Notes under the pieces: generated by a model | Told to the model about the DNA's origin: nothing | The model's input: only the letters and a program-made list of their open reading frames with translations | Databases searched by the model: none | Shown: one piece after another, positions 1,619 to 56,710 of the stretch | Position numbering within the stretch: position 1 is the stretch's first letter | Layout of the letters: the number at the start of each line of letters is the position of its first letter | Assembly (NCBI GenBank): GCA_963792075.1 | Contig: CAWBUW010000012.1 | Location: 2,099,840 to 2,163,839 of the forward strand | Reading direction: 5' to 3' | Length of the DNA: 64,000 nucleotides | DNA from: an uncultured Chloroflexia bacterium | GTDB lineage: Bacteria > Chloroflexota > Anaerolineae > Anaerolineales > UBA4823 | Program-made: the position numbers and the translations under genes

Positions 1619-2263
1619 ATGGGCTTGTCTTTTTACGGTCAGCGCTTGTGTTTCATCGGCGCCCACCCGGACGATATCGAGCTGGGCTGTGGGGCATTTA
1701 TCTCCAACGTCCTCGGGCAGGCAGAGATCCTGTGCGTTACGCTTTCAGATAACCAGAAGAACCCGGATTTGCAGCACCTGGTGGAAGAGCATTACCGCAG
1801 CATGGCTGTGCTGGGTGTGCCGCGCGAGCAGGTGCGCCTGGAGCCATTTGTCACCCGTCGTTTCCCGCAAGATCGCCAGGAAATCTTGGAATACCTGTTC
1901 CAGCTCAATAAGACCTATAAGCCGGATATCGTCTTCACGCATACCCGCTCGGATATCCACCAGGACCACGAGCAGACCACCGAAGAGGTGCTGCGGGCTT
2001 TTCGCGGTACCACCGTGTTGGGGTTCGATGTGACGCGTTCCAGCTACGGCTTCTTCCCACATTTCCTGGTCGAAGTGACTGCCGCGGACGTGGAAAAGAA
2101 AATCCAGGCGCTGGAGCAGTACACCACGTACCATGACCGCTACTATTTCAGCGCAGACCTGATCCGGGCGACCCTGATCCGGCACGGGGCATTGGCTGAA
2201 AAGCAGTTTGCAGAAGGGTTTGATATTTTGAGGATTGTGGGGAATTTCCAGAAGTGTCAGTAA
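1619..2263 (+). CDS. PIG-L / LmbE-family N-acetylglucosaminyl deacetylase
   Basis: AHPDDIELGCG and HQDH zinc-binding motifs characteristic of the PIG-L family. Confidence 0.8.
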   Translation: MGLSFYGQRLCFIGAHPDDIELGCGAFISNVLGQAEILCVTLSDNQKNPDLQHLVEEHYRSMAVLGVPREQVRLEPFVTRRFPQDRQEILEYLFQLNKTYKPDIVFTHTRSDIHQDHEQTTEEVLRAFRGTTVLGFDVTRSSYGFFPHFLVEVTAADVEKKIQALEQYTTYHDRYYFSADLIRATLIRHGALAEKQFAEGFDILRIVGNFQKCQ

Positions 2264-2321
2264 GCGGTCTCTACTTTGGCTGATAACCTGTTCTTTCATC
2301 AACAATGCAGGTGATGATCCT

Positions 2322-2639
2322 ATGCTAAGAAAAGATTTGAAGGTAGCCCGCACCTTGAGAAAACGTCTGGAAACCATTCCGGCATTCAAACGAATGATGG
2401 TCTTTGGCTCGCGTGCGCGCGGAGATGCCAATCCGGACTCTGACCTGGATTTATTCATTGAGGTTTCCGACCTCAATGCGGAAATTCGTGAGCAAATTCA
2501 AATGGCAGCCTGGGAAGTCAGCCTTGAAAATGGAGTTGTCATTTCCTCTTTTATTGCCAGTTCCTATTCGCTGAAGCACAGTTTATTGGCAGCTAACCCA
2601 TTGCTAAAGGCTATCGAAATGGATGGCATAGCAGTATGA
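2322..2639 (+). CDS. MNT-type minimal nucleotidyltransferase (antitoxin-like partner of HEPN)
   Basis: GSRARGDANPDSDLDL (GS-x9-12-DxD) Pol-beta-fold NTase motif. ATG at 2322 chosen over the upstream alternative start. The stop overlaps the next gene by 4 nt (ATGA). Locally AT-rich. Confidence 0.8.
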   Translation: MLRKDLKVARTLRKRLETIPAFKRMMVFGSRARGDANPDSDLDLFIEVSDLNAEIREQIQMAAWEVSLENGVVISSFIASSYSLKHSLLAANPLLKAIEMDGIAV

Positions 2640-3034
2640 GTGACAATCCACGCGCAGAGTTAATCACTTATCGCCTCCAACAGGCCAATGAGAGCCTTAA
2701 AGAGGCTCAAATCCTTGCTGAGGCCTCTCTATGGCGTGGCGCGATCAACCGCGCTTATTACGCCATGTTTTATGCAGTTCTGGCGCTAACGGTAATCAAC
2801 CAGCAAGTCATATCAAAACATTCTGGCGTGATCGCTTTTTTTGATAGGGATTTTGTACGGACCGGGATCTTCCCAAAGGAACTTTCCCGTTATTTGCATT
2901 TTGCTTTCGAGCGCAGGCAAAATAGCGACTACGGGGATTTATTTAGCGCAGATCAAGAAGAAACCAATCGAGCGATCAAAGAAGCTGATGAATTTGTCAC
3001 ACTGGTCAAGAATTACCTGCACGATAAGAATTGA
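2636..3034 (+). CDS. HEPN domain protein (toxin-like partner of MNT)
   Basis: All-helical 132-aa protein with AINRAYYAMFYA and ERRQNSDYGD blocks typical of classical HEPN (PF05168-like). Translationally coupled to the MNT gene. Confidence 0.75.
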   Translation: MSDNPRAELITYRLQQANESLKEAQILAEASLWRGAINRAYYAMFYAVLALTVINQQVISKHSGVIAFFDRDFVRTGIFPKELSRYLHFAFERRQNSDYGDLFSADQEETNRAIKEADEFVTLVKNYLHDKN

Positions 3035-4568: not shown

Positions 4569-5840
4569 ATGTCGGACATAGCAATTCGCGTGGAGAAATT
4601 GAGCAAGCAGTTCAAGATTGGGTCTGCACCCGTCCAATACCGCACGCTGCGGGATTCGCTGACGGATGTGCTGGCTGCCCCGGCACGCTTGTTAAAGAGT
4701 GGCTCACCCGGTCGAGAAAAAAGTACGATCTGGGCGCTGCAGGATGTCTCATTCGAAATCCACAAAGGACAGGTCGTGGGTGTGATCGGCCGCAACGGTG
4801 CCGGGAAGAGCACGCTGTTGAAGATCCTCTCACGAGTGACCGAGCCAACCTCGGGCCGGGCGGAAGTGCGCGGCCGGGTGGGGGCGCTGCTCGAAGTGGG
4901 CACGGGGTTCCACCCCGAGTTGAGCGGGCGGGAGAATATCTACCTCAACGGCGCCATCCTGGGCATGAAGCGTACCGAGATCGAGCGCAAGTTCGATGAA
5001 ATCGTGGCTTTTTCGGAAGTGGAACAGTTCATTGATACGCCTGTGAAGCGCTATTCGAGCGGCATGTACCTGCGCCTGGCGTTTGCCGTGGCAGCACACC
5101 TGGAGCCGGAGATCCTGGTCGTGGATGAAGTGCTGGCAGTGGGCGATGCGGAGTTTCAGCGCAAGTGCCTGGGCAAGATGAGCGACGTGGCCCAGGAAGG
5201 GCGCACCGTATTGTTTGTCAGCCATAATATGTCGGCTATCCTGCGCCTGACCGATGAAGCGCTCGTGCTGGAAAAAGGCAAGCTGGCGCTGCGCGCTCCC
5301 ACGCCTGAGGCGGTGGATTATTACATGGCGGCGGGTTTTTCCGAAACCGGCGAGCGTACCTGGCAGCGTGACGAAATACCGGCAGACGCAGCGCCGTTTA
5401 CCCCCCTGGCGCTGCGCGTGCGCAACCCGCAGGGGCAGGTGGCAGACACGCTGCGCACCACCGATCCTGTGACGGTGGAATTTGATTATGAGCTGAGCAG
5501 CCCCATTACCGGGCTGCGCGTGGGGCTGTACCTGCTGACCTTGCGAGGGGAATACGTATTCACTTCGTTTGATACGGATGACCCGGAGCGGTTTGACCAG
5601 TATGGGGTGCGTGCAGCCGGGCGCTATACCAGCCGCTGCACACTACCGGCGAACCTGTTGAATGACGGGCGCTACGTGCTGGCAGTCAACGCCAGCGCCT
5701 TCCGTGTGCGGCGTTATTTTTATGACGATCACGCCCTGGCAATTACGCTGGATGGCACCGGCGCGCCCGGCAAGCACTGGCCGGAGCCGCGGTTGGGGCC
5801 GGTGCGGCCCGCGCTGGATTGGGAAATCCTGAAAAGATGA
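4569..5840 (+). CDS. wzt: Polysaccharide ABC transporter ATP-binding protein with C-terminal beta-rich extension (Wzt-like with putative glycan-binding domain)
   Basis: Walker A GRNGAGKST, YSSGM signature variant typical of Wzt/TagH, Walker B ILVVDE. About 170 extra C-terminal residues. Confidence 0.85.
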   Translation: MSDIAIRVEKLSKQFKIGSAPVQYRTLRDSLTDVLAAPARLLKSGSPGREKSTIWALQDVSFEIHKGQVVGVIGRNGAGKSTLLKILSRVTEPTSGRAEVRGRVGALLEVGTGFHPELSGRENIYLNGAILGMKRTEIERKFDEIVAFSEVEQFIDTPVKRYSSGMYLRLAFAVAAHLEPEILVVDEVLAVGDAEFQRKCLGKMSDVAQEGRTVLFVSHNMSAILRLTDEALVLEKGKLALRAPTPEAVDYYMAAGFSETGERTWQRDEIPADAAPFTPLALRVRNPQGQVADTLRTTDPVTVEFDYELSSPITGLRVGLYLLTLRGEYVFTSFDTDDPERFDQYGVRAAGRYTSRCTLPANLLNDGRYVLAVNASAFRVRRYFYDDHALAITLDGTGAPGKHWPEPRLGPVRPALDWEILKR

Positions 5841-8355: not shown

Positions 8356-9363
8356 ATGGATTGGAGCCAACAAGTTGTTCTGGTGACTGGAGGAACGGGG
8401 TCTTTTGGCAAGCAGTTTGTCGAGATCATGCTCCAGGAGTGCCATCCGGCCAAGCTGATCGTTTTCAGCCGGGATGAGTTGAAACAACACGAGATGCGCG
8501 TGGCGGGTTTAGATCACCCCGACCTGCGCTATTTTATCGGGGACGTACGCGACGTGGAGCGCTTGCGCCGTGCCATGCACGGGGTAACCGTCGTGGTGCA
8601 CGCTGCGGCGTTGAAGCAGGTGCCGGCGTGCGAATACAACCCCATGGAAGCGATCAAGACCAATATCCTGGGCAGCAGCAACGTGATTGAGGCGGCGCTG
8701 GATGCGGGGGTGAAGCAGGTCCTGGCACTGAGTACCGATAAAGCGGTCAACCCGGTGAACCTGTATGGCGCCACCAAGTTGGCCGCAGAAAAGTTGTTTG
8801 TGCAAAGCAACTCGTACGCCGCCGGGACGAGAACCCGCTTTAGCTGCGTGCGCTATGGCAACGTCGTCGGCAGCCGCGGCAGCGTGGTGCCGGTCTTTAT
8901 CCGCCAACGCCAGACCGGCAAGTTGACCATTACCGACGACCGCATGACGCGCTTCTGGCTGACGCTGGACCAGGGTGTGCGTTTCGTGATCCACTGCATC
9001 GAGCAGATGCAGGGGGGCGAAGTGTTTGTGCCCAAGATCCCCAGCACACGCATCATTGACCTGGCGCGGGTGATCGCCCCAGAAGCGGAATATGACATTG
9101 TGGGAATTCGCCCGGGTGAGAAGCTGCATGAGGTGCTGATCTCAGAAGATGAATCGCGCTCAACGGTGGAGCGGGAGGAAATGTTCATCGTCAAGCCTGC
9201 CGCGACTCTGTGGCAGCGTGACCTGGCGTATGAAGGCAAGCCGCTGCCAGACGGCTTCCGCTATTCCAGCGACAACAACCCGGTCTGGTTAACCGAAGCG
9301 CAGATCCGGGAGATTGTGGCTCCCTTCGAAAAAGGGTCTACGCTGCAGGAGGCGGTTGGGTAA
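8356..9363 (+). CDS. pseB: UDP-N-acetylglucosamine 4,6-dehydratase (inverting), PseB/FlaA1 type
   Basis: VTGGTGSFGK, SRDELKQ, FIGDVRD, YGATKLAAEK, RYGNVVGSRGSVVP and IRPGEKLHE blocks are collinear with the PseB sequence as I recall it. Confidence 0.85.
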   Translation: MDWSQQVVLVTGGTGSFGKQFVEIMLQECHPAKLIVFSRDELKQHEMRVAGLDHPDLRYFIGDVRDVERLRRAMHGVTVVVHAAALKQVPACEYNPMEAIKTNILGSSNVIEAALDAGVKQVLALSTDKAVNPVNLYGATKLAAEKLFVQSNSYAAGTRTRFSCVRYGNVVGSRGSVVPVFIRQRQTGKLTITDDRMTRFWLTLDQGVRFVIHCIEQMQGGEVFVPKIPSTRIIDLARVIAPEAEYDIVGIRPGEKLHEVLISEDESRSTVEREEMFIVKPAATLWQRDLAYEGKPLPDGFRYSSDNNPVWLTEAQIREIVAPFEKGSTLQEAVG

Positions 9364-10343: not shown

Positions 10344-11406
10344 GATTGGCCAACGCTTGATTGGCCCCAAGCATCCGACTTATTTCATTGCAGACGTGGC
10401 TGCCAATCACGATGGCGACCTGGAACGCGCCAAACTGCTGATCCGCCTGTGCAAAGAAGCGGGCGCCGACGCGGCCAAGTTCCAGAATTTCCGCGCCCCG
10501 AAGATCGTCTCGGATTACGGCTTCCGCCACCTGGCTGGGGGTGGACAGGTTTCGCACCAGGCGGCCTGGAAGAAATCGGTTTTCCAGGTTTATTCGGAAG
10601 CATCCATTCCCTTCGAATGGACGGAAATCTTGAAGGAAGAATGTGACCGGGTGGGATTGGATTTCTTCTCCGCGCCGTATGACTTCGAAGCAATCGACAT
10701 GCTCGATCCTTATGTAAAGATGTATAAAGCTGGCTCAGGCGAGATCGATTGGATCGAAGCGCTGGAACTTATGGCGAAGAAGAACAAGCCGTTCTTCGTC
10801 GCTACCGGTGCATCGACAATTGGGGAAGTACAGCGGGCAGTGCATGCGATTCTAAAGATCAACCCGCAGTTGGTGCTGATGCAATGTAATACCAATTACA
10901 CTGCCAGCCCGGATAATTACGACCACTTGCACCTGAACGTACTGCGCACCTATGCGACGATGTTCCCGGATGTGATCTTGGGGCTATCGGACCATACCCA
11001 CGCGGTTGCGCCGGTGCTGGGCGCAGTGACTTTAGGAGCGCGCGTCATCGAGCGGCATTTTACCGACAGCAATCGGCGCGAGGGGCCCGATCACAAATTT
11101 GCCATGAACCCGGAAACCTGGGCCAAGATGGTGGAAGAGACCCGCCTGTTAGAACGCGCGCTTGGCTCGGCAGATAAGTTTGTTGCTGAGAATGAGGTGC
11201 AGACCGCGGTGATCCAGAGGCGCTGCCTGAGGGCGGCGCGGGATATCCGGGCGGGCGAGATCTTGACGCGGGAGATGATTGACGTGCTGCGCCCGGCCGC
11301 TCCAGGTGCAATCTTGCCGCATGAGATCCAGGCCGTGGTTGGCACCCGGGCACTGCAAGATATCCCCTTTGGCAAAGAGCTGCGTTGGACGGATATTGGA
11401 GCGTAG
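10333..11406 (+). CDS. NeuB-family nonulosonic/ulosonic acid synthase with C-terminal SAF domain
   Basis: TYFIADVAANHDGDLERAKLLI, DAAKFQNF, LGLSDHT and ERHFT blocks, plus C-terminal SAF-like IRAGEILTREMI. Confidence 0.85.
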   Translation: MEIKIGQRLIGPKHPTYFIADVAANHDGDLERAKLLIRLCKEAGADAAKFQNFRAPKIVSDYGFRHLAGGGQVSHQAAWKKSVFQVYSEASIPFEWTEILKEECDRVGLDFFSAPYDFEAIDMLDPYVKMYKAGSGEIDWIEALELMAKKNKPFFVATGASTIGEVQRAVHAILKINPQLVLMQCNTNYTASPDNYDHLHLNVLRTYATMFPDVILGLSDHTHAVAPVLGAVTLGARVIERHFTDSNRREGPDHKFAMNPETWAKMVEETRLLERALGSADKFVAENEVQTAVIQRRCLRAARDIRAGEILTREMIDVLRPAAPGAILPHEIQAVVGTRALQDIPFGKELRWTDIGA

Positions 11407-11564: not shown

Positions 11565-12692
11565 GTGAAAATCCTCTATTTCACCCGCGACTATACCACG
11601 CATGACCACCGTTTTCTGAGCGCCCTGGCGCAGACAGAGCACCAGGTGGCTTATTTACGCTTGGAGCAGCGCGGGCATACGTTGGAGGACCGGGCGCTAC
11701 CGCCGCAGATCGAGCAAATTTCCTGGAAGGGGGGACGGCAGCCGTTCAGTTATGGGAACCTGCTGCCGCTGCTGCTCGACTTGAAACGGGTGATCCGGGA
11801 AGTGCAGCCAGACATGATCCAGGCAGGGCCGGTCCAGACCGCCGCGTTTCTGGTGGCGCTGGCGGGGCACTGCCGGTTGGTGAGCATGTCATGGGGTTAT
11901 GACCTGCTGCATGATGCCCAGCGCAATGCGCTCTGGCGCTGGATGACACGCTTCACGCTGAGCCGCAGCGCAGCGCTGGTAGGAGACTGCGATCCGGTGC
12001 GCCAGCAGGCGATTGCCTTTGGCATGCCAGGCGAGCGGATTGTGACTTTCCCGTGGGGCGTAGATCTCAAGCATTTTACCCCGGCAGGCAAGACAGAAGA
12101 GCCTGGGAAAACCCTGACGGGTGAAGCTGCCGCCCCTCTGTGTTTGCTTTCTACCCGCAGTTGGGAACCGATTTACGGCGTAGAAGTGCTGGCGCGCGGC
12201 TTTGCCCAGGCTGCGCAGCGTTTGGGGCCCGATCAAGTGCAGTTGGTGATGTTGGGGAATGGGCCCCTGGCTGGCACTCTGCGCCAGATTTTCAACCGGG
12301 CAGGGGTGAGTGAGCGGGTGTTCTTTCCTGGACAGGTCAACCAAAGCGAGCTGCCGCGCTATTATCAGCAGGCAGACCTGTACCTGAGCGCCTCGCGCAC
12401 CGATGGAACTTCCATTTCGCTGTTGGAAGCGCTGGCATGTGGAACGCCTGTGTTGCTTTCGGATATTCCCGGCAACCGGGGATGGCTGGAGCCGGGCGTG
12501 CAGGGCTGGTATTTCAAAGATGGCGACGCTGAGTCACTCGCCCAGGCGATTGTGCATGCGGCTGATCAGCGCCAGCGGCTGTTTGAAATGGGCAGCGCCG
12601 CGCGGGCGCTGGCTGAGGCGCGCGCTGATTGGGTAAAGAATTTTCCAAAACTATTGGAGGCCTATGCAATTGCAACCACCCCCGTCCCTTAA
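11565..12692 (+). CDS. GT4-family glycosyltransferase
   Basis: C-terminal GTSISLLEALACGTPVLLSD (EX7E-type) motif. GTG start. Confidence 0.8.
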   Translation: MKILYFTRDYTTHDHRFLSALAQTEHQVAYLRLEQRGHTLEDRALPPQIEQISWKGGRQPFSYGNLLPLLLDLKRVIREVQPDMIQAGPVQTAAFLVALAGHCRLVSMSWGYDLLHDAQRNALWRWMTRFTLSRSAALVGDCDPVRQQAIAFGMPGERIVTFPWGVDLKHFTPAGKTEEPGKTLTGEAAAPLCLLSTRSWEPIYGVEVLARGFAQAAQRLGPDQVQLVMLGNGPLAGTLRQIFNRAGVSERVFFPGQVNQSELPRYYQQADLYLSASRTDGTSISLLEALACGTPVLLSDIPGNRGWLEPGVQGWYFKDGDAESLAQAIVHAADQRQRLFEMGSAARALAEARADWVKNFPKLLEAYAIATTPVP

Positions 12693-16993: not shown

Positions 16994-16998
16994 AAAAC

Positions 16999-17041
16999 AT
17001 GCAGGTATCAGGCGCTGCATTGCAGCGCCTGATACCTGCAT
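16999..17041. repeat. 43-nt perfect palindrome (21-bp arms) immediately after a stop codon
   Basis: ATGCAGGTATCAGGCGCTGCA-T-TGCAGCGCCTGATACCTGCAT. No T-tract. Next ATG at 17060. Confidence 0.7.
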
Positions 17042-18523: not shown

Positions 18524-19521
18524 AGTTCCTGATTGCAGGTTTTGGCTCCATCGGGAGGCGGCATTTCCGCAACCTGTTGGCGCTGGGTGAGACGGATATC
18601 GTTTTGTACCGTACCGGCCACAGCACGCTGCCGGATGACGAAATCATAGGGTTCCCGGTTGAGACCAACCTTCAGGCCGCGCTGGCGCACCGGCCCGATG
18701 CGGTCATTGTCGCCAACCCGACCGCGCTGCACCTGGATGTGGCGATCCCGGCTGCTGCGGCGGGCTGCCACCTGTTCCTGGAAAAACCTATTTCTCATTC
18801 GCTGGCGCGCGTTGGCGAACTGCAGCAAGCCGTCCAAAGCAGCCAGGTGAAAGTGCTGGTGGGATTCCAATTCCGCTTCCACCCGGGGCTGCGTAAAATC
18901 CGGGAAATCTTGCAGGGTGGCACGCTTGGCCGCACCCTGAGCGTGCGCGCACATTGGGGCGAATACCTGCCGGACTGGCATCCCTGGGAAGATTACCGCC
19001 AGGGTTATGCTGCGCGGGCTGACCTGGGGGGAGGGGTGGTATTGACATTGAGCCATCCGATTGATTATTTACGTTGGCTGTTTGGCGAAGTAGCGCAGGT
19101 TCACGCCTTTGTCGGGCATTTGAGCGACCTGGAAGTGCAGACGGAAGACCTGGCTGAGATCCTCTTCCGTTTCGAGACGCGCGTTGTGGGCAGCCTGCAC
19201 CTGGATTACTGCCAACAGCCGCCGGTTCATCGCATGGAAATTGTGTGTACAAAGGGCACCCTGCGCTGGGACAATGCGGACGGCGCTGTGCAGGTGTACG
19301 TGGTTGGCGACCCGGCAATATCAGCCTGGGAGACGTTCCCCGTACCTGCGGGCTTTGATCGCAATGAGATGTTCCTGGATCAAACCCGGCATTTCATCGA
19401 AGTAGTCCGCGGCGCCAGCCAGCCGGTGTGTACGCTGCAAGATGGCGTGCGCGCCTTGGAGCTGGCTTTGCTGGCTAATGATTTGGGGGCTGCCCAAAAA
19501 GAAACAAAGGAAGAAAATTAA
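18520..19521 (+). CDS. Gfo/Idh/MocA-family NAD(P)-dependent sugar oxidoreductase
   Basis: KFLIAGFGSIGRRH Rossmann motif, EKP motif (FLEKPIS). GTGA coupling at 18520; an ATG at 18511 is also possible. Confidence 0.85.
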   Translation: MKFLIAGFGSIGRRHFRNLLALGETDIVLYRTGHSTLPDDEIIGFPVETNLQAALAHRPDAVIVANPTALHLDVAIPAAAAGCHLFLEKPISHSLARVGELQQAVQSSQVKVLVGFQFRFHPGLRKIREILQGGTLGRTLSVRAHWGEYLPDWHPWEDYRQGYAARADLGGGVVLTLSHPIDYLRWLFGEVAQVHAFVGHLSDLEVQTEDLAEILFRFETRVVGSLHLDYCQQPPVHRMEIVCTKGTLRWDNADGAVQVYVVGDPAISAWETFPVPAGFDRNEMFLDQTRHFIEVVRGASQPVCTLQDGVRALELALLANDLGAAQKETKEEN

Positions 19522-19569
19522 TACGTATCTGTGGGGGTGGTGCGAAGCACCACCCCCACAGATACGTAT
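19521..19569. repeat. 49-nt perfect hairpin (23-bp arms, GAA loop) at a gene end, probable terminator or RNA-stability element
   Basis: ATACGTATCTGTGGGGGTGGTGC-GAA-GCACCACCCCCACAGATACGTAT. Imperfect complementarity extends to about 19501-19590. Confidence 0.7.
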
Positions 19570-27604: not shown

Positions 27605-27622
27605 TGGATTGTCAAATCTGTT

Positions 27623-27667
27623 TTTATTGTTTGTTTGAGCGCCGAAGGCGCTCAAACAAACAATAAA
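27623..27667. repeat. 45-nt perfect hairpin (21-bp arms, GAA loop) between genes
   Basis: TTTATTGTTTGTTTGAGCGCC-GAA-GGCGCTCAAACAAACAATAAA. Next gene has an AGGAG SD and ATG at 27700. Confidence 0.7.
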
Positions 27668-38193: not shown

Positions 38194-39318
38194 TCAGGGT
38201 TTGTCGGATGGCCAGGTGGTGCCGGCGCGTACGATCCCCCCCTCGGGAACGTCGGACTTGACCACCGCGCTGTTACCAATGCGCGCGCCTTGTCCAATCA
38301 CAGCGCGCAGGTTGATGGTTGCCCCCATGCCGATCAGGACACCTGCGCCTACCTGCACCTGTCCTGCGAGGATGGAACCTGGCGAGAGGTTGGCGAAATC
38401 GCCGACCTGGCATTCGTGAGAGACGATCGCTCCGGTGTTGACGATTGCGCCGTAACCAAGGTGGGTTTCGCTGCCCACGTAAGCGTGAGGGAAGACCTGT
38501 ACACCCGCGGCCAGGCTGGCAGAAGGCTCGACGAAAGCAGTCGGATGGACCAGCGCCGGGCAGGCGAAACCGGCCTGGGTGAGACGCTGGAAAATCAAGA
38601 TGCGGATGCTGACATTACCGATGCCTCCCACGGCATTTACGGCCAGGCGCACACCGCGGCGGTGCAGCTCGGGGAGCTGGTCGGCACCACCCAGGAGCGG
38701 CACCCCCATCATTTGGGGCGTCTCGGCAGGGTCCATGCCATCATCCACGATACCGGCAATGTGAAAGGTGCCCAGGGCGCGGATTAAATCGATCAACGCC
38801 TTGGCATGCCCACCGCCGCCATAGACCAGGATCGCTGTAGGGTCGAACTCGCCGGAGGGGGGAGCAAAATCGGGCCGGTTAAGGTGTTCAATCCGCTTCT
38901 GGATGTCGCGTTCGGTGATCAGGGTGCCTGTGGGTAGCTCGCTCAGGTCAAGCTTGTGCTGGCGGGCTAGCGCCACAGCGGGTTGGGTGATGCGCAGGCC
39001 CTCAGGGAGCTGTTCTGGAGTGCCCGTCTTGCCTGGAAGTGGCTGCTCTCTGGCCGGCGGCTGCCAGTCAGGCGAGGGTGCCAGGTAGCACAGCAGGTCT
39101 CCGGCACGGGCGGTCTGGCCCTGCGCCAGGCGCAAGCCCACCACGTAACCGTCCTTTTCGGCCTGTAAATCCGCAGTGGATTTGGTGGTTTCCAACGTAC
39201 AAAGCAGGTCACCGGAGGCAACCAACTGGCCCTCTTGTACGTGCAGAGCGGCGAGCTGCGCTTCAGGCTCATTGGGGTTGAGCAGGGGGATGGTGACGGA
39301 AAAGGGTTCAGTCTGCAT
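38194..39318 (-). CDS. Chimeric E2-like protein: lipoyl domain + peripheral-subunit-binding domain + PglD/NeuD-type left-handed beta-helix acyltransferase
   Basis: N-terminal CTLETTKSTADLQAEKDGYV (lipoyl-lysine context). LRITQPAVALARQHKLDLSELPTGTLITERDIQKRI (PSBD-like). ILVYGGGGHAKALIDLI Rossmann-like PglD_N plus hexapeptide repeats. ATG at 39318; the upstream ORF extension is rejected. Confidence 0.7.
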   Translation of the reverse strand: MQTEPFSVTIPLLNPNEPEAQLAALHVQEGQLVASGDLLCTLETTKSTADLQAEKDGYVVGLRLAQGQTARAGDLLCYLAPSPDWQPPAREQPLPGKTGTPEQLPEGLRITQPAVALARQHKLDLSELPTGTLITERDIQKRIEHLNRPDFAPPSGEFDPTAILVYGGGGHAKALIDLIRALGTFHIAGIVDDGMDPAETPQMMGVPLLGGADQLPELHRRGVRLAVNAVGGIGNVSIRILIFQRLTQAGFACPALVHPTAFVEPSASLAAGVQVFPHAYVGSETHLGYGAIVNTGAIVSHECQVGDFANLSPGSILAGQVQVGAGVLIGMGATINLRAVIGQGARIGNSAVVKSDVPEGGIVRAGTTWPSDKP

Positions 39319-39341
39319 GGTGAGAATTATACCCGTATGTC

Positions 39342-40418
39342 TCAAGACTGGCTGGCGATCCTGGCTGCGATGAAAATGTCCTCGACGCCGGGCAGCGTGG
39401 CGGCCTCCAGGGGTCCAGAGGCAGGAATGGGATGTTCGTGGGCGGCCAGGCGGCGAGCGCTTTTGAGCCGGGGACCCAGGGCTTCGGCTGCCTGCGCCAG
39501 CACCTCTGCACCCCAACCCAGAGCCAGGGTGCCCTCTTCAATGGCAAGCAGGCGACCTGTGCGGCCGACCGAGGCGATCAAAGGAGCCAGCTCGAAGGGA
39601 GCAAGCTGCGTCGGGATGACTAATTCGACGAATACCTCGGCTTCGTAGGCCAGGCGCAAGGCCGCCTGGCGGGCAAGCTCGGCCATGTGCCCATATGCTG
39701 CCAGCGTGAGGCTGGCCGGGGGGGCGCCCTGGATGGAGAGCGTATAGGTGGGGCAGGGCAGCGGTGTCAGGCAGGATACGGCGGCTCCCGCGTGGGTTTG
39801 CAGCGTGAAGTCGGGCAGCGCAGCCGCGTCCTGGACGGGCTGCAAGTAAAGCAGTTTATTTTCAATAAATAGAGCAGGGTCTTCACCCAGCAGCACCTGG
39901 CGGTAGAGCAGATCGGCCGGGCCACCGTAAGGGAAGGGGCTGGCGGAGGGAAGCTTTGAATACTGCAGGGCACACGGGGCCAGGATGCGCAGTCCGGGAA
40001 TACCGAGGAATAGCTTCTCCAGGGTCTGCGAGTGGGTAGGGCCATAGCCGCGCCGCCCGCCCATCGGGGTGCGCAGGGTGAGCGGCAGGCGCACCTGGTC
40101 ATTGTACATCCAGCGGAACTTGGCGATGTGATTGACGATCTGGTCCGCAGCCAGCGTGATGAAATCACCGAACATGATCTCAACAACCGGGCGCAAGCCG
40201 CGCAAGGCCATGCCGGCGGCCACGCCGACGATGCCGGCTTCGGAGATGGGCGTGGTCAGGACACGCTGGGGATAGGCGCTGGACAGGCCGCGGGCAACTT
40301 TGAAAGCGCCGCCATAGGGATCAAGCAGGTCTTCACCGAGCAAGTAGACGCGTTCGTCCTCAGCGAACAGACGGTGAAGACAGGCATTCAGAGCATCGAG
40401 TACAGTCTGGGATGGCAT
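39342..40418 (-). CDS. TPP-dependent 2-oxoacid (pyruvate/acetoin/branched-chain type) dehydrogenase E1 beta subunit
   Basis: YLLGEDLLDPYGGAFKVARGL..TPISEAGIVGVAAGMALRGLRPVVEIMFGDF blocks. Confidence 0.85.
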   Translation of the reverse strand: MPSQTVLDALNACLHRLFAEDERVYLLGEDLLDPYGGAFKVARGLSSAYPQRVLTTPISEAGIVGVAAGMALRGLRPVVEIMFGDFITLAADQIVNHIAKFRWMYNDQVRLPLTLRTPMGGRRGYGPTHSQTLEKLFLGIPGLRILAPCALQYSKLPSASPFPYGGPADLLYRQVLLGEDPALFIENKLLYLQPVQDAAALPDFTLQTHAGAAVSCLTPLPCPTYTLSIQGAPPASLTLAAYGHMAELARQAALRLAYEAEVFVELVIPTQLAPFELAPLIASVGRTGRLLAIEEGTLALGWGAEVLAQAAEALGPRLKSARRLAAHEHPIPASGPLEAATLPGVEDIFIAARIASQS

Positions 40419-40430
40419 ACGCGGCTGGTA

Positions 40431-41318
40431 TCAGGGTGAAGGATAAGGGTCTTGTAAAGCCTGGGTGAATGCATGGGCGATTTCAGTGTCCACCTGGGAT
40501 TGAATAAGGGAGAGCTCGGTAGGAGGGATACGGGCTGCCTGCAAGGTGAGCGGGTCGCGGGTCTGGCGCAGGTGGCCCACTTCCTCGGAGGAACGGGTAT
40601 CATCGCCTTTCGAATGTGGGCCAAAACGGCAGGTGTGCAGGATCAAGCCCTGCGGTGTGCGCTGCTGGCGGGCTTCGGCCAGCAATGCGGCTGCGGTGGG
40701 GCAGATTTCCTGCACATCGCTGGTATCCAGTTCTGCCGCCGGGATGCCAAAAGCCGAGAAGCGGGCCGGCATGCTGCCCGCCACGCCCAGGGCAGAGGGG
40801 GTGGTTTGCGCAATGTTATTGGCTTCGAGCACATACAGGATGGGAAGCTGCCACAGAGAGGCCAGGTTGAGCGCTTCATATACAACGCCCTCGCCGAGCG
40901 TGCCATCCCCAATGAAAACGATCGTCACCGCCTGGGTCTTTTTGGCTTTTTCTGCCAATGCCATGCCTGTGGCGACGGGGACAATGCCACCTTGGACGCC
41001 GTTCGAATAAAAATCGCGCCAGTGCAGATGCTGCGAGCCGCCGCGCCCTCCACACACGCCGGTGGATTTGCCCATCAGCTCGGCGAATAAGGCGCGCGGG
41101 TCGCCGCCATAGGCCAGGAAATGACCGTGGCAGCGGTGGTTGCTGAATACTGGATCGCCTGGTTGTATGTGCGAAAGCACCCCCACGGCATTCGCCTCTT
41201 GTCCAAGATAGGTGTGGGTGGTGCCAAAGAAGACCCCTTTGGGAAAGTTGTCCAGCACGGTCTCTTCGAAACGCCGGATGCGGTAAAGCTCCCGGTATAA
41301 ATCGGCGGGGTTAACCAT
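40431..41318 (-). CDS. TPP-dependent 2-oxoacid dehydrogenase E1 alpha subunit
   Basis: TPP motif FIGDGTLGEGVVYEALNLASLWQLPILYVLEANN. YRIRRFEE N-terminal block. Confidence 0.85.
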   Translation of the reverse strand: MVNPADLYRELYRIRRFEETVLDNFPKGVFFGTTHTYLGQEANAVGVLSHIQPGDPVFSNHRCHGHFLAYGGDPRALFAELMGKSTGVCGGRGGSQHLHWRDFYSNGVQGGIVPVATGMALAEKAKKTQAVTIVFIGDGTLGEGVVYEALNLASLWQLPILYVLEANNIAQTTPSALGVAGSMPARFSAFGIPAAELDTSDVQEICPTAAALLAEARQQRTPQGLILHTCRFGPHSKGDDTRSSEEVGHLRQTRDPLTLQAARIPPTELSLIQSQVDTEIAHAFTQALQDPYPSP

Positions 41319-41364
41319 GTCGAGAATTATACTTCACACTGGGGGTTGGCTTGGATGGTTGAGA

Positions 41365-42006
41365 TCAATCATCGTCAAAACAGTGGAAATCGACCGGTGA
41401 GCCCCTGAACTCTTCGGCAGTGGCATGACCAGGCTGGCTGATGCCTTCACGCTGGAAGACTTTCCATATCGTCAGAGCAAGGATTTTGATATCCAACCAG
41501 ATCGAATGATGATCTACATACCATACATCCAGGCAGAACTTCTGCTCCCAGGTGATGGCGTTGCGCCCGTTGACCTGTGCCCAGCCGGTGATGCCGGGCA
41601 GCACGTGATGGCGGCGGGCCTGTTCAGGAGAGTAGCGGTCGAGGTACTGCATGAGCAGTGGGCGGGGCCCGACCAGGCTCATTTCACCGTGTAAAACGTT
41701 GTACAATTCAGGCAGCTCATCCAGGCTGGTTGCACGCAGGAAGCGTCCCAGGCGAGTCAGGCGCAGTACATCCGGGAGCAGGTTGCCTTGAGCATCGCGG
41801 GCATTGGTCATGGTGCGGAACTTGTACAGCGTGAATGGGCGACCCAGGAAACCAGGGCGTTGCTGGGAAAAAAGGACCGGCCAACCATGGAAGATCCGGA
41901 CAAGCAAGACGAGCAGCAGCAGCAGGGGTGAGATTACGATCAGGCCGGGGATGGTCAGCAGGATGTCAAAGATACGTTTCGAAATGGGGATCGACGGCAC
42001 GTGCAT
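41365..42006 (-). CDS. PglC/WbaP-C-type monotopic phosphoglycosyl transferase (initiating sugar-1-phosphate transferase)
   Basis: [23 protein letters not shown] re-entrant helix, [32 protein letters not shown] at 42006; the upstream extension translates a palindrome. Confidence 0.85.
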
Positions 42007-42014
42007 ACATAAAC

Positions 42015-42023
42015 ATTGTACCA
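42015..42023 (-). promoter_or_regulatory. Extended -10 element (TGgTACAAT) only 8 nt upstream of the PGT start codon, suggesting a possible leaderless mRNA
   Basis: Minus-strand reading ctcTGGTACAATgtttatgtATG. No Shine-Dalgarno sequence. Confidence 0.35.
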
Positions 42024-42039
42024 GAGGCCGCTGGAGAAT

Positions 42040-42083
42040 ATATGGTATTTTGTGCGGGCATGCGCCCGCACAAAATACCATAT
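42040..42083. repeat. 44-bp palindrome, copy A of a two-member family
   Basis: ATATGGTATTTTGTGCGGGC-ATGC-GCCCGCACAAAATACCATAT. 33 nt from the PGT start codon. Confidence 0.75.
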
Positions 42084-42100
42084 TTATACCTTTTTGAATC

Positions 42101-42138
42101 TAAAAGAACATCCCTGCCGCTGTTCAGCGACAGGGATG
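42101..42138 (-). terminator. Probable rho-independent terminator of lexA
   Basis: Minus strand: CATCCCTG-t-CGCTG-aa-CAGCG-g-CAGGGATG followed by TTCTTTTA. Confidence 0.55.
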
Positions 42139-42169
42139 CCTGTTCTTCGGAAATGGGGGATAGTTAGAT

Positions 42170-42913
42170 TTATTGAACGGTGTGGAGGGAACGTATCACC
42201 ATGACAACTTTACCCTGTACCCGAACGGTGGCGGGGTTGTCAATGTAAATAGGCTTCATGGTCGGGTTAGCGGGCTGCAAGCGGATGCGTTTGCCTTCTT
42301 TGAAAAAGTACTTGAGCGTGGTTTCTTCGCGGTCATCCAACCAGACGGCAACCATTTCCCCATTGCGTACGTCACGTGCCGGGCGCATAATGACATAGTC
42401 GCCCTCGTTGACCATCGCATCGATCATGGAGTCTCCCCGCACTTCGAGCGCGAAGAGCTCTTCAGTTTTCTCTCGGCCGGGAAGCATGGAACGCGCGATA
42501 TCCACAAAGCCCATGTAGCGGAAGTCAGTATCGGGCAGAGGTACAGGCTCACTGGCGAAGATACGTCCTACTAGTGGGATTTTGATCATTTCTTCGACGG
42601 AGGAGAGTGCACGCTTGGCGGCATCTTTTAGCGCCTGACCGGGGATAGGTCCAGAGGCTTCGGCCTCAAGCATTTCTGCCAGCGGTTTGACCAGGCGGAT
42701 GCCGCGCGAGACGCGACCTGCGCGCTCGATCATACCGCGCTCTTCCAATTGGTCGAGATAATAATTAGCCACTGAAGTAGATGAAATATCTGCTCGTTGG
42801 CAAATTTCGCGAATGGAAGGGGGGTAACCATGCTGCTGTTGGTAACGGTCGAGCACTTCCAGGATATGGAGCTGGCGCTCGGTCAATTCTTTCTTGCGTT
42901 GTCGGGCCATCAT
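42170..42913 (-). CDS. lexA: LexA repressor (wHTH + S24 peptidase) with extended linker and Ala-Ser at the expected cleavage position
   Basis: TERQLHILEVL..PPSIREICQRADISSTSVANYYLDQLEERGMIER wHTH. VGRIFASEP, GDSM (Ser) and TTLKYF (Lys) S24 motifs. GAGGAGG SD. Confidence 0.85.
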   Translation of the reverse strand: MMARQRKKELTERQLHILEVLDRYQQQHGYPPSIREICQRADISSTSVANYYLDQLEERGMIERAGRVSRGIRLVKPLAEMLEAEASGPIPGQALKDAAKRALSSVEEMIKIPLVGRIFASEPVPLPDTDFRYMGFVDIARSMLPGREKTEELFALEVRGDSMIDAMVNEGDYVIMRPARDVRNGEMVAVWLDDREETTLKYFFKEGKRIRLQPANPTMKPIYIDNPATVRVQGKVVMVIRSLHTVQ

Positions 42914-42999
42914 CTGAGCCTCCTCGGTGAGTGAGTTATCCAGAACCCACTGTATTCGTTCGGATAATTAAGAAACAGAAAAAGTGTTCTATAATTGAG

Positions 43000-43028
43000 A
43001 TATTATCAGAACTATTGTTCTGTGTCAA
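43000..43028 (-). promoter_or_regulatory. lexA promoter with an SOS (Cheo-type GAAC-N4-GTTC) box inside the spacer
   Basis: Minus strand TTGACA (43023-43028), 17-nt spacer, TAATAT (43000-43005). AGAACAATAGTTCT occupies 43008-43021. Confidence 0.65.
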
Positions 43029-43150
43029 GACCCAGTTTCTTTTTTTTCTTTTTGGACAGCCCCCACATTTGCCCTCTATCACGGCGATTCCCAGAGAGCC
43101 TCCTCAATTTCACAAACAGGTGGAGTGTGAGATAATCAGCCTGAAAGCTT

Positions 43151-44644: not shown

Positions 44645-45055
44645 ATGGACACAAAGCCAAAGAAAATATTTCCTGTTCTTTCAGCCCAAGAAGAGGAAAT
44701 TGGAAAGCAGGTAGTCGACGCAGCTTTCCAGGTGCATCATGCCTTAGGTCCAGGGCTGTTAGAAAATGTGTATGAGATTTGCTTTTGCCATGAGTTGGCA
44801 AAGCGCGGATTAGAATTCCAGCGGCAAGTCCCTGTGCCAATTGAATACGATGGGATCTACTTTGACGAAGCATTTCGTCTGGATGTGCTGGTTGAAAATC
44901 TGGTCATCTGTGAATTAAAGGCGCTAGATGTGCTGCTGCCGGTTCACCAGGCGCAGTTGCTAAGCTATCTTAGGCATAAACGAAAGCGGCTTGGTTACCT
45001 GATCAATTTTCACGTTCCACTGATCAAGCATGGTATTCATCGCTATGTTTTTTAA
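44645..45055 (+). CDS. GxxExxY protein (PD-(D/E)XK-like small nuclease-fold family)
   Basis: GPGLLENVYE signature, 136 aa. Markedly AT-richer than the flanking GT genes. Confidence 0.8.
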   Translation: MDTKPKKIFPVLSAQEEEIGKQVVDAAFQVHHALGPGLLENVYEICFCHELAKRGLEFQRQVPVPIEYDGIYFDEAFRLDVLVENLVICELKALDVLLPVHQAQLLSYLRHKRKRLGYLINFHVPLIKHGIHRYVF

Positions 45056-48045: not shown

Positions 48046-48057
48046 CTAGAGGGGAAA

Positions 48058-48099
48058 TTGGGGGAGTGCGGTGGGGTTTTCCCCACCGCACTCCCCCAA
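48058..48099. terminator. Bidirectional terminator hairpin between convergent genes
   Basis: TTGGGGGAGTGCGGTGGGG-TTTT-CCCCACCGCACTCCCCCAA (19-bp arms) between the stops at 48045 (+) and 48108 (-). Confidence 0.7.
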
Positions 48100-50322: not shown

Positions 50323-51084
50323 TCATGTATTCGGGACCGGCTGCCATTTTCCGTTTTCATCTAACGCCAACATGCTGCCCGCCTCATCCCAGGCGAGCAT
50401 GCGGTGCAATTGAACGATCAGGGCAGCGCGTGTGCGAGCGATCTTTTCATCGGTCGTGGACTGGGCCAGCCCCCAGGTCGCGTAGATCTGCCCGTTGGTG
50501 CGGCTGATGGTGCGTTTATCCTGGAAACCCAAACGAGCCGCAATTTGTTCGTTGGTCAGGCCCTGGGCCAGCAAACGGGCTACCACCTGCTCGTTTGGCT
50601 CCAGCAGCGCCATGGGGTCGTTTTCATCCTTGTGACGTACTTCCTGTACCCGTGCTTCGATTTCAGGATCAATGAAGCTGCGTCCAGACACAGCATCTTG
50701 CAGCAGGGGGAGGATCATTGCCGGCAGCAGGTAGTTGGATTTGCGCACATAGGCATAGTGGCTGAGGATGCCGGAACGGCGAAAATCCCGGTAGTAAGTG
50801 TCCTCATCCTGGATCGAGTAAAACACGACCGGCAGGCGGGGAAATTCTCGGCGGATAGCGACTGCCGCCTGGATCCCGTTCATTTGCCCTGCCAGTTGTA
50901 CATCCATCAAGATCACGGAGGGGATGGGTTGGTCGTTGGATGCGGCGCATTGCAGGCAGTATTCCAGGGCTGCCTCACCGCTGGCGCAGTCATAGACAAC
51001 GTGGACTCCGCCGGTAGCATGTAGACCATCTTTGAGCGCCTGCCGCAGGCGAGGATTATCTTCGACGAGGAGAGTGATTAACAT
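50323..51084 (-). CDS. NarL/LuxR-family response regulator (REC + LuxR HTH) with C-terminal extension
   Basis: LLVEDNPRL, ILMDVQL phospho-acceptor context, LTNEQIAARLGFQDKRTISRT HTH. ATG at 51084 has a GGAAG SD; an alternative start lies at 51111. Confidence 0.8.
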   Translation of the reverse strand: MLITLLVEDNPRLRQALKDGLHATGGVHVVYDCASGEAALEYCLQCAASNDQPIPSVILMDVQLAGQMNGIQAAVAIRREFPRLPVVFYSIQDEDTYYRDFRRSGILSHYAYVRKSNYLLPAMILPLLQDAVSGRSFIDPEIEARVQEVRHKDENDPMALLEPNEQVVARLLAQGLTNEQIAARLGFQDKRTISRTNGQIYATWGLAQSTTDEKIARTRAALIVQLHRMLAWDEAGSMLALDENGKWQPVPNT

Positions 51085-51218
51085 GAGATTTCTTCCATTA
51101 CTTTTACCCATGGAGGATAATCGCGAGGTGTGGTTTGGTCAAGCACCTGGGTGCGCGTATCCGGGGTTTCAGAGGGTGTCTGGATAAAGGATTTTATCTG
51201 AAAATGGTGCTATCCAAT

Positions 51219-51262
51219 ATAGGGTATTTTGTACGGACGTACGCCCGCACAAAATACCCTAT
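51219..51262. repeat. 44-bp palindrome, copy B of the family seen at 42040-42083
   Basis: ATAGGGTATTTTGTACGGAC-GTAC-GCCCGCACAAAATACCCTAT. 31 nt upstream of the radical SAM start. The two A:C mismatches on the plus strand become G:U pairs on the minus strand. Confidence 0.75.
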
Positions 51263-55368: not shown

Positions 55369-55401
55369 AGTTACCTTCCTGGTTTCAAAGAAGTGGGAGG
55401 C

Positions 55402-55434
55402 GAGGTATGTGCGGGTCCTGCCCGCACATACCTC
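55402..55434 (-). repeat. Intercistronic hairpin between E2 and E3 sharing the GTGCGGG/CCCGCAC core
   Basis: GAGGTATGTGCGGG-TCCTG-CCCGCACATACCTC (14-bp arms). Confidence 0.6.
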
Positions 55435-55453
55435 ACCTGGCCGAATGGTAGGG

Positions 55454-56710
55454 TTATTTTACTATGTTTAGCGGCCAATCGCGCAGCGTTTCCACAACTT
55501 TACCCAGCCAGGCGTCGGCAATCGCGCCATCCAGGATGCGGTGATCAAAGGTCAGGCTGAGGTAAAGCATGGGGCGGATGGCGATCACGTCCCCCAGGGC
55601 AGGATCGCTGAGGACTACAACTCGTTTTTGGATGGCTCCCACGCCCAGGATTCCGCATTGTGGCTGGTTGATAATCGGTGTGGCAAAGAGAGAACCGCTG
55701 ATACCATGGTTGGTAATTGTAAAAGTGCCGCCCTTGACCTCGTCTGGGGTTAGTTTGCGCGCCCGCGCCCGGTTTGCCAGGTCGTTGATCGTGCGCGCCA
55801 GGCCCAATAAGGAGAGGCTGTCAGCGTTCTTGATCACAGGAACGATCAACCCTTCTTCGCCCAGGGACGTGGCTATACCGAGGTTGATCTGGTGATGGAT
55901 CAGGATGCCTGCCTCGCTCCAGGAAGCGTTTACCATTGGGGTAGCTTTCAAGGCTGCAACCGCGGCAGCGGCAAAGTACGCCGTAAAAGTCAGGTTAACC
56001 CCTTCGCGAGCGAAAGCCTCCTTATTCGCGGCCCGGTGGGCAACGACCCGGCTCAGGTCAACTTCCATGACTGTCGTGACGTGCGGTGAGCTGCGCTCAG
56101 AAAAGACCATATGCTCGGCAATCAAACGGCGCACCGGGGACAGCGGCTTGATCTCGTCGCCCGCCAGGCCGGCCGGGAATTGGACGGGTGCAGAGAGTTT
56201 ATTTTCCTGAACCTCTGCCCTGGCTGCCTTTTCGGTGGATGGCGCAGCCGTGGGTACAGCCGGTGCAGCCAGCGAAGCCTGCGGAGCCAGCGAAGCCTGC
56301 GGAGCTACAAGGTAATCCAACACATCTTTCTTGGTGATGCGCCCCCCTTCGCCGGTACCGGTCACCTGGTACAAATCGATGTGATGTTCGGTTGCCAGCC
56401 TGGCAACGATGGGGGAGATGAAACCCAGCTCGCGGTTTCGCCCGCTTGTGGATTCTACCGGAAGCTTTTCTCCCGGTTCACCGATCACCGCCAACAAACT
56501 GCCTGCCTGGACAGTCGTGTTGGGCTCCACCAGGATTTCCAGCACCACGCCGGACGCCGGACTGGGTATCTCTGCAACCACTTTGTCTGTATTCACTTCG
56601 AGCAGTGGCTCGAATTCTTTGATGGGGTCGCCAACGGCTTTGAGCCATTCGATCACGGTAGCTTCGACAACCAATTCACCGAGTTGGGGCATCAGAACCT
56701 TTGTGGGCAT
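55454..56710 (-). CDS. Dihydrolipoamide acyltransferase (E2) of a 2-oxoacid (branched-chain-type) dehydrogenase complex
   Basis: Lipoyl LEVNTDKVVAEI, PSBD ISPIVARLATEHHIDLYQVTGTGEGGRITKKDV, catalytic LTFDHRILDG. ATG at 56710. Confidence 0.9.
   Translation of the reverse strand: MPTKVLMPQLGELVVEATVIEWLKAVGDPIKEFEPLLEVNTDKVVAEIPSPASGVVLEILVEPNTTVQAGSLLAVIGEPGEKLPVESTSGRNRELGFISPIVARLATEHHIDLYQVTGTGEGGRITKKDVLDYLVAPQASLAPQASLAAPAVPTAAPSTEKAARAEVQENKLSAPVQFPAGLAGDEIKPLSPVRRLIAEHMVFSERSSPHVTTVMEVDLSRVVAHRAANKEAFAREGVNLTFTAYFAAAAVAALKATPMVNASWSEAGILIHHQINLGIATSLGEEGLIVPVIKNADSLSLLGLARTINDLANRARARKLTPDEVKGGTFTITNHGISGSLFATPIINQPQCGILGVGAIQKRVVVLSDPALGDVIAIRPMLYLSLTFDHRILDGAIADAWLGKVVETLRDWPLNIVK
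56267..56302. repeat. Perfect 18-nt tandem duplication inside the E2 linker
   Basis: AGCCAGCGAAGCCTGCGG x2, encoding APQASL-APQASL on the minus strand. Confidence 0.8.

Follow-up and report, generated by a model that had tools for sequence, protein, structure and literature searches.

Why should two near-identical 44-bp palindromes, here called copies A and B, each stand a little over 30 nt ahead of the first gene of a glycan operon in the genome of an uncultured Chloroflexia bacterium (Anaerolineales; UBA4823)? Both lie in the 64 kb of contig CAWBUW010000012.1 that were analysed (positions 2,099,840 to 2,163,839 of the forward strand, hereafter the window; the source contig is of 2.75 Mb). 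A preliminary description of the window, made from its sequence alone, preferred to see in them an operator co-regulating the two operons, perhaps through the regulator encoded beside copy B, and offered as a second reading a structured repeat family resembling the repetitive extragenic palindromic (REP) elements. On balance we incline to the second: the palindromes seem to be members of a REP-like dispersed hairpin repeat, different from a canonical REP and restricted to this Anaerolineales lineage. The family is new, of an ordinary kind, and known so far only in this lineage. A and B are more likely to be repeats of this sort than binding sites for a regulator, because the family also precedes genes that are not concerned with glycans.

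The two 20-nt arms of copy A are 100% complementary, and the 146-nt region around it folds with a z-score of -8.5 against shuffled sequences. Copy B is identical to copy A at 38 of the 44 positions. One of the differences is two-sided, the T-A pair formed by positions 4 and 41 of copy A being replaced by a G-C pair in copy B, and the two A:C mismatches of copy B on the plus strand become G:U pairs on the minus strand, which folds into an unbroken 20-bp stem. The two-sided change and the strand-dependent G:U pairs had been pointed out in the preliminary description, together with the coordinates of the two copies, and they stand. The palindromes are beyond chance in the window: a 16-nt arm has four matches there at up to two mismatches and six at up to three, compared with 0.88 expected, and none of 100 shuffles reached six.

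Copies A and B and one found in a metagenome contig (L204) were used to build a covariance model which, applied to the window, revealed one diverged member, copy C, between the genes for the E2 and E3 components of a 2-oxoacid dehydrogenase (16 nt past the E2 stop codon and 29 nt before the GTG of E3, which is dihydrolipoamide dehydrogenase, lpdA; the best E3 identity found was 82%). Copy C keeps GGTAT, GTGCGGG/CCCGCAC and ATACC, and has lost TTT and AAA symmetrically, one from each arm. The L204 contig was the only relevant one to come from a two-arm pattern scan of the metagenomes of the Joint Genome Institute (JGI); its copy, GGGGTATTTTGTGCGGGC-TTT-GCCCGCACAAAATACCCC, has a 16-nt core that is identical in both arms, and lies 47 nt after the stop codon of a Transketolase_C (E1-beta) gene and 39 nt before the ATG of an enoyl-CoA hydratase gene. 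A fifth copy, with six differences and unrelated flanks, occurs on a 206-nt contig from a related sample (run X1). It was the one extra copy found when Logan contigs were matched to the palindrome alone, an insensitive procedure that under-counts copies because contigs break at the palindrome; even the contig of copy B itself in that run was not matched to A.

Other long hairpins in the window score 18-23 bits in the covariance model, the level attained through structure only. Of the two additional hairpins to which the preliminary description had attributed the same core, the one at 55398-55438 is thus a true relative (copy C), and the other, at about 48058-48099, is no better at 22.7 bits than unrelated long hairpins at 17000, 27624 and 19521; lying between convergent genes, it has the look of a generic terminator. 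The hairpin that begins at 16998 also does no better than generic hairpins (22 bits), and its membership is uncertain. A half-copy at 2842-2862 was rejected, being inside a HEPN gene and best taken as a chance match. As an aside, the four hairpins at 16998-17040, 19520-19568, 27622-27666 and 48057-48098 are all intergenic, and have perfect or near-perfect stems of 19-23 bp, a uniform length of about two helical turns that is striking in itself; two of them have no 3' T-run and are followed by a start codon at 19 and 33 nt.

Table 1. Members of the palindrome family in the window, and features with which they are compared
Feature	Positions	Strand	Description
Copy A	42040-42083	.	ATATGGTATTTTGTGCGGGC-ATGC-GCCCGCACAAAATACCATAT; 20+4+20 perfect palindrome; 70 bits in the covariance model
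Copy B	51219-51262	.	ATAGGGTATTTTGTACGGAC-GTAC-GCCCGCACAAAATACCCTAT; 68 bits in the covariance model
Copy C	55398-55438	.	AGGCGAGGTATGTGCGGG-TCCTG-CCCGCACATACCTCACCT; 32.4 bits, E 8.5e-6; diverged member
Possible distant relative	16998-17040	.	Perfect 21-bp stem with GGTAT...ATACC base; between a GT2 gene and the next gene
Predicted radical-SAM -10, GAAAAT	51200-51205	+	Context; 13 nt 5' of copy B; alignment column of 17 orthologous leaders
Predicted E3 -10, TAAAAT (in TAGTAAAAT)	55456-55461	-	Context; 17 nt 5' of copy C; overlaps the E2 stop codon
Dyad GTCAAGCACCTGGGTGCG	51138-51155	.	Context, not a family member; 16-bp GTCAAGCAC-N4-GTGC

Copy A lies 33 nt 5' of the ATG (42006, minus strand) of a PglC-like gene (Pfam Bac_transf), downstream of lexA and its terminator. 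Copy B lies 31 nt 5' of the ATG (51294, plus strand) of a gene with B12-binding and Radical_SAM domains that is followed by a GT4 glycosyltransferase gene, and it occupies the intergenic region between this radical-SAM gene and a divergent regulatory gene (50323-51084). Both spacings agree with those first given. The product of the latter gene, earlier labelled a LuxR-type regulator, has a Response_reg domain; no helix-turn-helix domain was found in it at E 0.001 in the Pfam scan, but its homologues are named as NarL/FixJ family by JGI. Since lexA has its own canonical terminator (42107-42140, minus strand) and its own upstream box (the classical GAAC-N4-GTTC), copy A is neither the lexA terminator nor a LexA site; a link of copy A to LexA was considered and rejected, the box being unrelated to the palindrome. 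(The lexA promoter, at 42998-43030 on the minus strand, is TTGACA-17-TAATAT, with the SOS box GAACAATAGTTC in its spacer.) The operon that begins with the PglC-like gene (38194-42006, minus strand) is unusual in pairing parts of a 2-oxoacid dehydrogenase with sugar modification: it includes genes for E1-alpha, E1-beta, a fusion of a lipoyl domain with a PglD-like acetyltransferase, and a DegT aminotransferase.

How do the copies stand in relation to promoters? Mapping by homology from the -10 column of the orthologous radical-SAM leaders (Table 1) would have copy B occupy about +8 to +51 in the mRNA of the radical-SAM gene, some 7-8 nt past the transcription start. This column is 88 nt from the ATG in the window (44 nt plus the 44-nt palindrome), 42 nt from it in L287 and 30 nt in L290, and copy B is likely to be an insertion in the 5' untranslated region (UTR). 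Upstream of E3, TAGTAAAAT, GGTATAAT or TAGTACAAT recurs in many of 80 orthologous loci, and the position of TAGTAAAAT in the window suggests that copy C begins at about +11 of the E3 transcript. There are -10-like hexamers also 13 nt 5' of copy A (TAGATT) and 18 nt 5' of the L204 copy (TATCAT), both of them post hoc pattern matches. A stronger promoter candidate for the gene downstream of copy A is TGGTACAAT, which stands 8 nt ahead of the ATG. As this start codon lacks a Shine-Dalgarno sequence, the PglC-like mRNA may well be leaderless, and copy A would then fall outside the transcript, occupying about -33 to -76. Such heterogeneous contexts fit a tolerated repeat better than a single dedicated mechanism. 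The idea that the palindrome is itself a bidirectional promoter, with CAAAAT and ATTTTG as outward-facing -10 sequences, was abandoned, as copy C lacks those bases and the orthologous -10 is upstream of copy B.

Throughout the family, the core is GGTAT(TTT)GTGCGGG(C), followed by a loop of 3-5 nt and by (G)CCCGCAC(AAA)ATACC, to give a stem of 18-22 bp and a unit of 37-44 bp. The loops are ATGC, GTAC, TTT and TCCTG, and the outer stems (ATAT, ATAG, GG and AGGCGA) are each paired with their own complement. In the model-guided alignment, 95.5% of cells pair and 13 of the 20 pairs are invariant, while both sides have changed in each of the three outermost variable pairs.

Comparison with close relatives shows how quickly the copies change. 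In relative X2, copy C differs from that in the window by nine substitutions and three inserted bases within 41 nt, and the flanks differ at four of about 310 positions. The stem nevertheless persists in X2, with a folding energy of -32 kcal/mol: C55432T compensates for G55404A, and the C:A mismatch of the window copy is repaired through A55435G. Such remodelling would result from strong selection on structure or else from hairpin-templated (template-switch) mutation, and its speed between near-identical strains makes copy C a natural case in which selection on RNA structure and templated mutation might be compared as causes of palindrome evolution. Strain X1 retains copy B with one change (T51255C); the X2 contigs end at the edges of copy B, which is to be expected when a de Bruijn assembler meets a palindrome. 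At the locus of copy A, the lexA gene of X2 is about 98-99% identical over the stretches compared and the PglC-like gene about 85%, and the spacer between them is 100 nt long, compared with 163 nt in the window, the aligner having passed over 140 bases of the window. Neither of the 30-nt stretches read at the two ends of the X2 spacer includes a palindrome arm (the central 40 nt, outside these reads, could accommodate a hairpin of less than 40 nt), so within the species group itself copy A is not conserved. The fall in identity across this spacer, from about 98% in lexA (42170-42419) to about 85% in the PglC-like gene (41738-42029), marks a recombination boundary where a variable glycan operon begins to adjoin lexA.

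Beyond this lineage, searches for the family were negative. Genome scans with a 20-nt arm gave only two unrelated matches; scans with a 16-nt arm gave chance single-arm matches (none of 120 loci was palindromic, and a 16-mer is too short for 596 Gb); and the two-arm pattern had no match in 185,579 species genomes (one genome per species). The covariance model found no member in 80 radical-SAM and 80 E3 loci from Chloroflexota and others, with the sole exception of a 28.8-bit hairpin in L164 that has only GTACTTTGT in common with the family. That hairpin (L164:5926-5970, from a member of the Chthonomonadaceae) is a 45-bp near-perfect palindrome 30 nt before the radical-SAM ATG, and overlaps a TTGACA-17-TATGAT promoter; its likeness to the window family is unexplained. 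Equally unexplained are the half-sites GTAYTTTG and ATACTTTC, spaced by 1, 10, 11 or 18 nt, upstream of radical-SAM genes in L164 and in a group of loci that includes L128, and this resemblance was not used as evidence of homology. A palindrome of about 80 bp on an unrelated AT-rich metagenome contig (L205:240-350), found by a core-only pattern match (ATATTTTGTCCGGAC...GTCCGCACAAAATAT), is not a member.

The known members thus precede or separate unrelated genes: a PglC-like glycan operon, a radical-SAM/GT4 operon, an E2-E3 junction, and an E1-beta/enoyl-CoA hydratase junction. Occupation of unrelated intergenic sites, gain, loss and remodelling among close relatives, and retention of the stem while the loop and outer stem drift, are together the behaviour of REPs or of miniature palindromes, and it is here that the second reading in the preliminary description finds its support. 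What we infer beyond this concerns the mode of spread, the transcription of the copies and any effect at the RNA level. Most copies would lie in transcribed untranslated RNA, either in a 5' UTR from some 7-12 nt past the predicted start or in an intercistronic spacer, and for this reason any effect would probably be that of an RNA stem-loop just 5' of the ribosome-binding site, which might protect against RNA decay, provide a processing site of the RNase III type, or insulate adjacent transcription units from one another.

Species-specific palindromes of other kinds occur in related organisms, often in comparable positions. Hairpins with arms of at least 13 bp are found about once per 7-12 kb in Anaerolineales-rich sets of loci (the radical-SAM set in this count also includes other phyla), against one per 18 kb in loci taken at random, while GGTAT at the base of the stem is a feature of four of the eight long hairpins in the window, compared with 5/154 in related loci and 0/49 in random ones. 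The E3 leaders of other Anaerolineales (among L206-L285, e.g. L237:2935-2970, L229, L233 and L281) have unrelated, species-specific hairpin families in the same place, downstream of the conserved -10 of TAGTAAAAT or GGTATAAT: these include GGTTAAGGGTATAATCGCCCTTAACC in nine loci, the widespread GTCATTGCGAG...CTCGCAATGAC, and GACTTCCGAAGTC; a nine-locus family, GGTTAAGGG-TATAATCG-CCCTTAACC, has TATAAT in its loop. In L189 (Chloroflexia), four copies of a palindrome of about 57-81 bp occur in 13 kb (4746-4802, 9216-9292, 10643-10723 and 12361-12439), with a conserved foot (GTTTTGTGTGGGT...) and a variable apex. If the interpretation as a dispersed repeat is correct, long perfect palindromes near start codons in Anaerolineales would be common, species-specific and mostly not operators, and would provide no basis for the inference of regulons during annotation.

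To what extent do these elements resemble those already described? REPs are mobilized by REP-associated tyrosine transposases (RAYTs), and are present in tens to thousands of copies per genome. Like the family described here (37-44 bp, with three copies in the window, one in L204 and one in X1), they are short intergenic palindromic repeats associated with unrelated operons; they are often transcribed, tolerate G:U pairs, vary in their presence between strains, and have been given proposed roles in mRNA stability and termination. The REP superfamilies GTAG and CGTC have an unpaired tetranucleotide tag at the end of a stem of 5-13 bp (Di Nocera et al. 2013; PMC3733652). In contrast, the window family has stems of 18-22 bp and neither GTAG nor CGTC beside the stem (in the flanks read, those of A, B, C and L204, GTAG comes no closer than 10 nt, beside copy C), so in tag and stem length it is not a canonical REP. 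Other differences are the absence of dimers or clusters, an apparently low copy number in the 64 kb read, and a position close to the start of the next gene, REPs being mostly downstream of genes.

The Correia elements of Neisseria and the enterobacterial repetitive intergenic consensus (ERIC) elements are of 100-150 bp, with terminal inverted repeats and target duplication, and Correia hairpins are substrates of RNase III. These elements resemble the window family in forming long hairpins in untranslated mRNA, in affecting processing or stability, and in being present or absent according to strain, whereas the window family is a bare hairpin of 37-44 bp with no recognizable target duplication. 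Miniature inverted-repeat transposable elements have terminal inverted repeats flanked by a target-site duplication and are typically over 50 bp; here the entire unit is an inverted repeat of less than 50 bp, and inspection by eye of the flanks of A, B, C and L204 revealed no shared direct repeat.

Several observations weigh against the interpretation as a REP-like repeat. Only three copies are present in 64 kb, all of them within 13.4 kb, and very few were found elsewhere; high copy number is a hallmark of REPs, and three copies in the window fall short of showing it. Neither a GTAG/CGTC tag, nor a target-site duplication, nor a RAYT (an IS200/IS605-type tyrosine transposase) or other IS200-type transposase was seen in the window, where the open reading frames (ORFs) scanned against Pfam yielded no transposase domain. 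The four well-placed copies are all 29-39 nt before a start codon, with a -10-like hexamer 13-18 nt upstream, and this shared placement could be a selected regulatory position. In copy B the mismatches turn into G:U pairs on the antisense strand of the radical-SAM gene in three cases out of three, the X1 variant included (the chance of this is about 0.25). The wide variation in the lengths of orthologous leaders makes the insertion of copy B likely rather than proven, and if copy A is outside the mRNA, a single role at the RNA level would not cover all copies.

Might the palindromes nevertheless be a selected cis-regulatory RNA in 5' UTRs, in which a double-strand-specific RNase or an RNA-binding protein recognizes the GGUAUUUUGUGCGGGC stem and so coordinates mRNA stability or translation? 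As a general explanation we consider this rather unlikely, although a selected RNA-level role for some copies is possible. The stem has been maintained through two-sided changes and co-deletion; the single mismatch of copy C is a G:U pair on the E3 sense strand; copies start 13-18 nt past -10-like hexamers, two of which are backed by alignment of orthologues; and a hairpin is also present 19-25 nt before the ATG in orthologous radical-SAM leaders from a second Anaerolineales subgroup, where the mismatches are G:U in the sense strand. Stems of 18-22 bp also match the minimum length for substrates of RNase III-type enzymes. However, hairpin-templated mutation can keep palindromes perfect without selection, copy A is probably upstream of the promoter of its gene, and the mismatches of copy B favour the antisense strand. 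Nor is there a match to a known RNA family beyond generic hairpin noise: Rfam 15 gave no match in the window at the gathering threshold, and at E<=1 the palindromes overlap sub-threshold models of eukaryotic microRNA precursors and one weak small-RNA match, which is generic scoring of hairpins. The hairpin in the leader of ompA mRNA is a 5'-terminal stabilizing stem-loop, gene-specific and not repeated. It is comparable to the window family in being a stable stem-loop near the 5' end of a transcript and 5' of a ribosome-binding site; the unpaired 5' tail predicted here, of about 7-11 nt, is longer than the known protective length.

The operator favoured in the preliminary description, by which the adjacent NarL/FixJ-type regulator or an unlinked one would bind the palindrome and co-regulate the downstream operons, now looks unlikely. 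The elements do have dyad symmetry and arms that are highly conserved among A, B and L204, and they are near promoters: copy A at about -33 to -76 from the candidate TGGTACAAT, and B and C just past the predicted starts, where a bound protein could act as a roadblock. Copy B, moreover, is in the divergent control region of the regulator, whose pairing with the radical-SAM gene is syntenic in other Anaerolineales. Operator sites for NarL/FixJ proteins are of 16-20 bp with fixed spacing, whereas the window element is twice as long (its conserved stretch, of 32-40 bp, far exceeds the sites of NarL/LuxR proteins), its arm-to-arm distance varies (loops of 3, 4 and 5 nt), and copy C is short by 3 nt in each arm. 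Variable arm distance and co-deletion hardly suit a dimeric DNA-binding protein, but are readily accommodated by a hairpin, whether of RNA or of single-stranded DNA. The gene set (glycan genes, lpdA and an enoyl-CoA hydratase gene) is incoherent for a regulon, and most glycan operons of the window have no copy: the covariance model found none in the 33-kb glycan cluster at 3-36 kb, which has genes for Wzm/Wzt, two NeuB proteins, three cytidylyltransferases and many glycosyltransferases. Close relative X2 lacks copy A at its locus, and there is no regulatory gene among the ORFs listed in the 4 kb beside the L204 copy. The argument from conserved spacing to start codons, which had been held to favour regulation, is weak because intergenic regions are short; the chance of four copies lying within 40 nt is, roughly, 0.07.

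Orthologous control regions also lack the palindrome, and retain something else. L287-L290 have the same divergent gene order, GT4 <- radical-SAM / regulator -> (ORF of about 400 aa) -> kinase, and the palindrome is found neither in these syntenic regions nor in 17 orthologous leaders from across Chloroflexota, aligned with the window as the eighteenth, that have in common a dyad, TCAAGCAC-N4-GTGC(TT), 86-202 nt before the radical-SAM ATG (L126, L127, L132, L133, L135, L144, L145, L149, L157, L160, L177, L182, L183, L202, L287, L289 and L290). In the window, GTCAAGCAC-N4-GTGC occurs only once (Table 1). The dyad lies over the -35 of the regulator, which reads TTGACA on the regulator strand and is represented in the window by TTGACC-17-TATCCT (51142-51114); 3' of the dyad come a box, CTSARRCGGTGGA, and then the -10 column of the radical-SAM gene (TATAAT, TACAAT or TAGAGT; in the window, GAAAAT). 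The conserved dyad is thus, on comparative grounds, a better candidate than the palindromes for the operator of the response regulator, and can be tested as such; the two-component system concerned is widespread in Chloroflexota, with its synteny conserved. An earlier choice of regulator promoter, based on TAAAAT at 51191-51196, is superseded by the conserved TTGACC-17-TATCCT, and a sigma-54 reading of TGGCAGAATTTGCC in the orthologous leaders was rejected, as its GG-to-GC spacing is 8 nt and not 10.

A structure-specific trans factor, such as a protein or nuclease acting on double-stranded RNA or hairpin DNA, might instead link envelope glycan genes with those for 2-oxoacid dehydrogenases and lipoyl functions, and genes of the E1, E2 or E3 type are indeed present in three of the four family contexts; site and factor would then be co-evolving too fast to be visible in other species, and we regard the proposal as distinctly doubtful. 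The notion that the palindromes are intrinsic terminators or insulators separating neighbouring transcription units is highly improbable, even though the stems are very stable and the genes on either side of A, of C and of the L204 copy are co-directional, for a stem without a T-run is not a terminator and neither strand has one after the stem (the sequences 3' of the stems are ATTCTCC, TTATACC, GTAATGA and ATTGGAT, and a terminator scan flagged none of the copies, leaving A and B unreported), lexA already has a terminator, B separates divergent genes with nothing to terminate, and C is downstream of the predicted E3 promoter.

Some minor observations concern the neighbourhood of these elements. 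The second Anaerolineales subgroup mentioned above (L128:5940-5975, L134, L140, L152, L154 and L161) has a different radical-SAM leader, with direct repeats (CTGAYA-N4-TTGAYAGT), TGGCAGAAT, and then the hairpin GATACTTTC...GAAAGTATC followed by a T-run; this hairpin looks like a leader terminator or attenuator. The JUMPstart/ops element GGCGGTAG is absent from the vicinity of 42.0 and 51.2 kb, and all seven matches in the window are inside genes. These matches to the octamer (the ops core), at 11697, 29899, 30214, 37384, 37687, 39899 and 62550, compare with 1.8 expected, and none of 100 shuffles reached seven; the excess is probably due to codon or peptide bias. Adjoining the glycan cluster is a minimal nucleotidyltransferase/HEPN gene pair that resembles a toxin-antitoxin module (2235-3034), and a small gene of the PD-(D/E)XK_3 family (44645-45055) lies between two GT4 glycosyltransferase genes.

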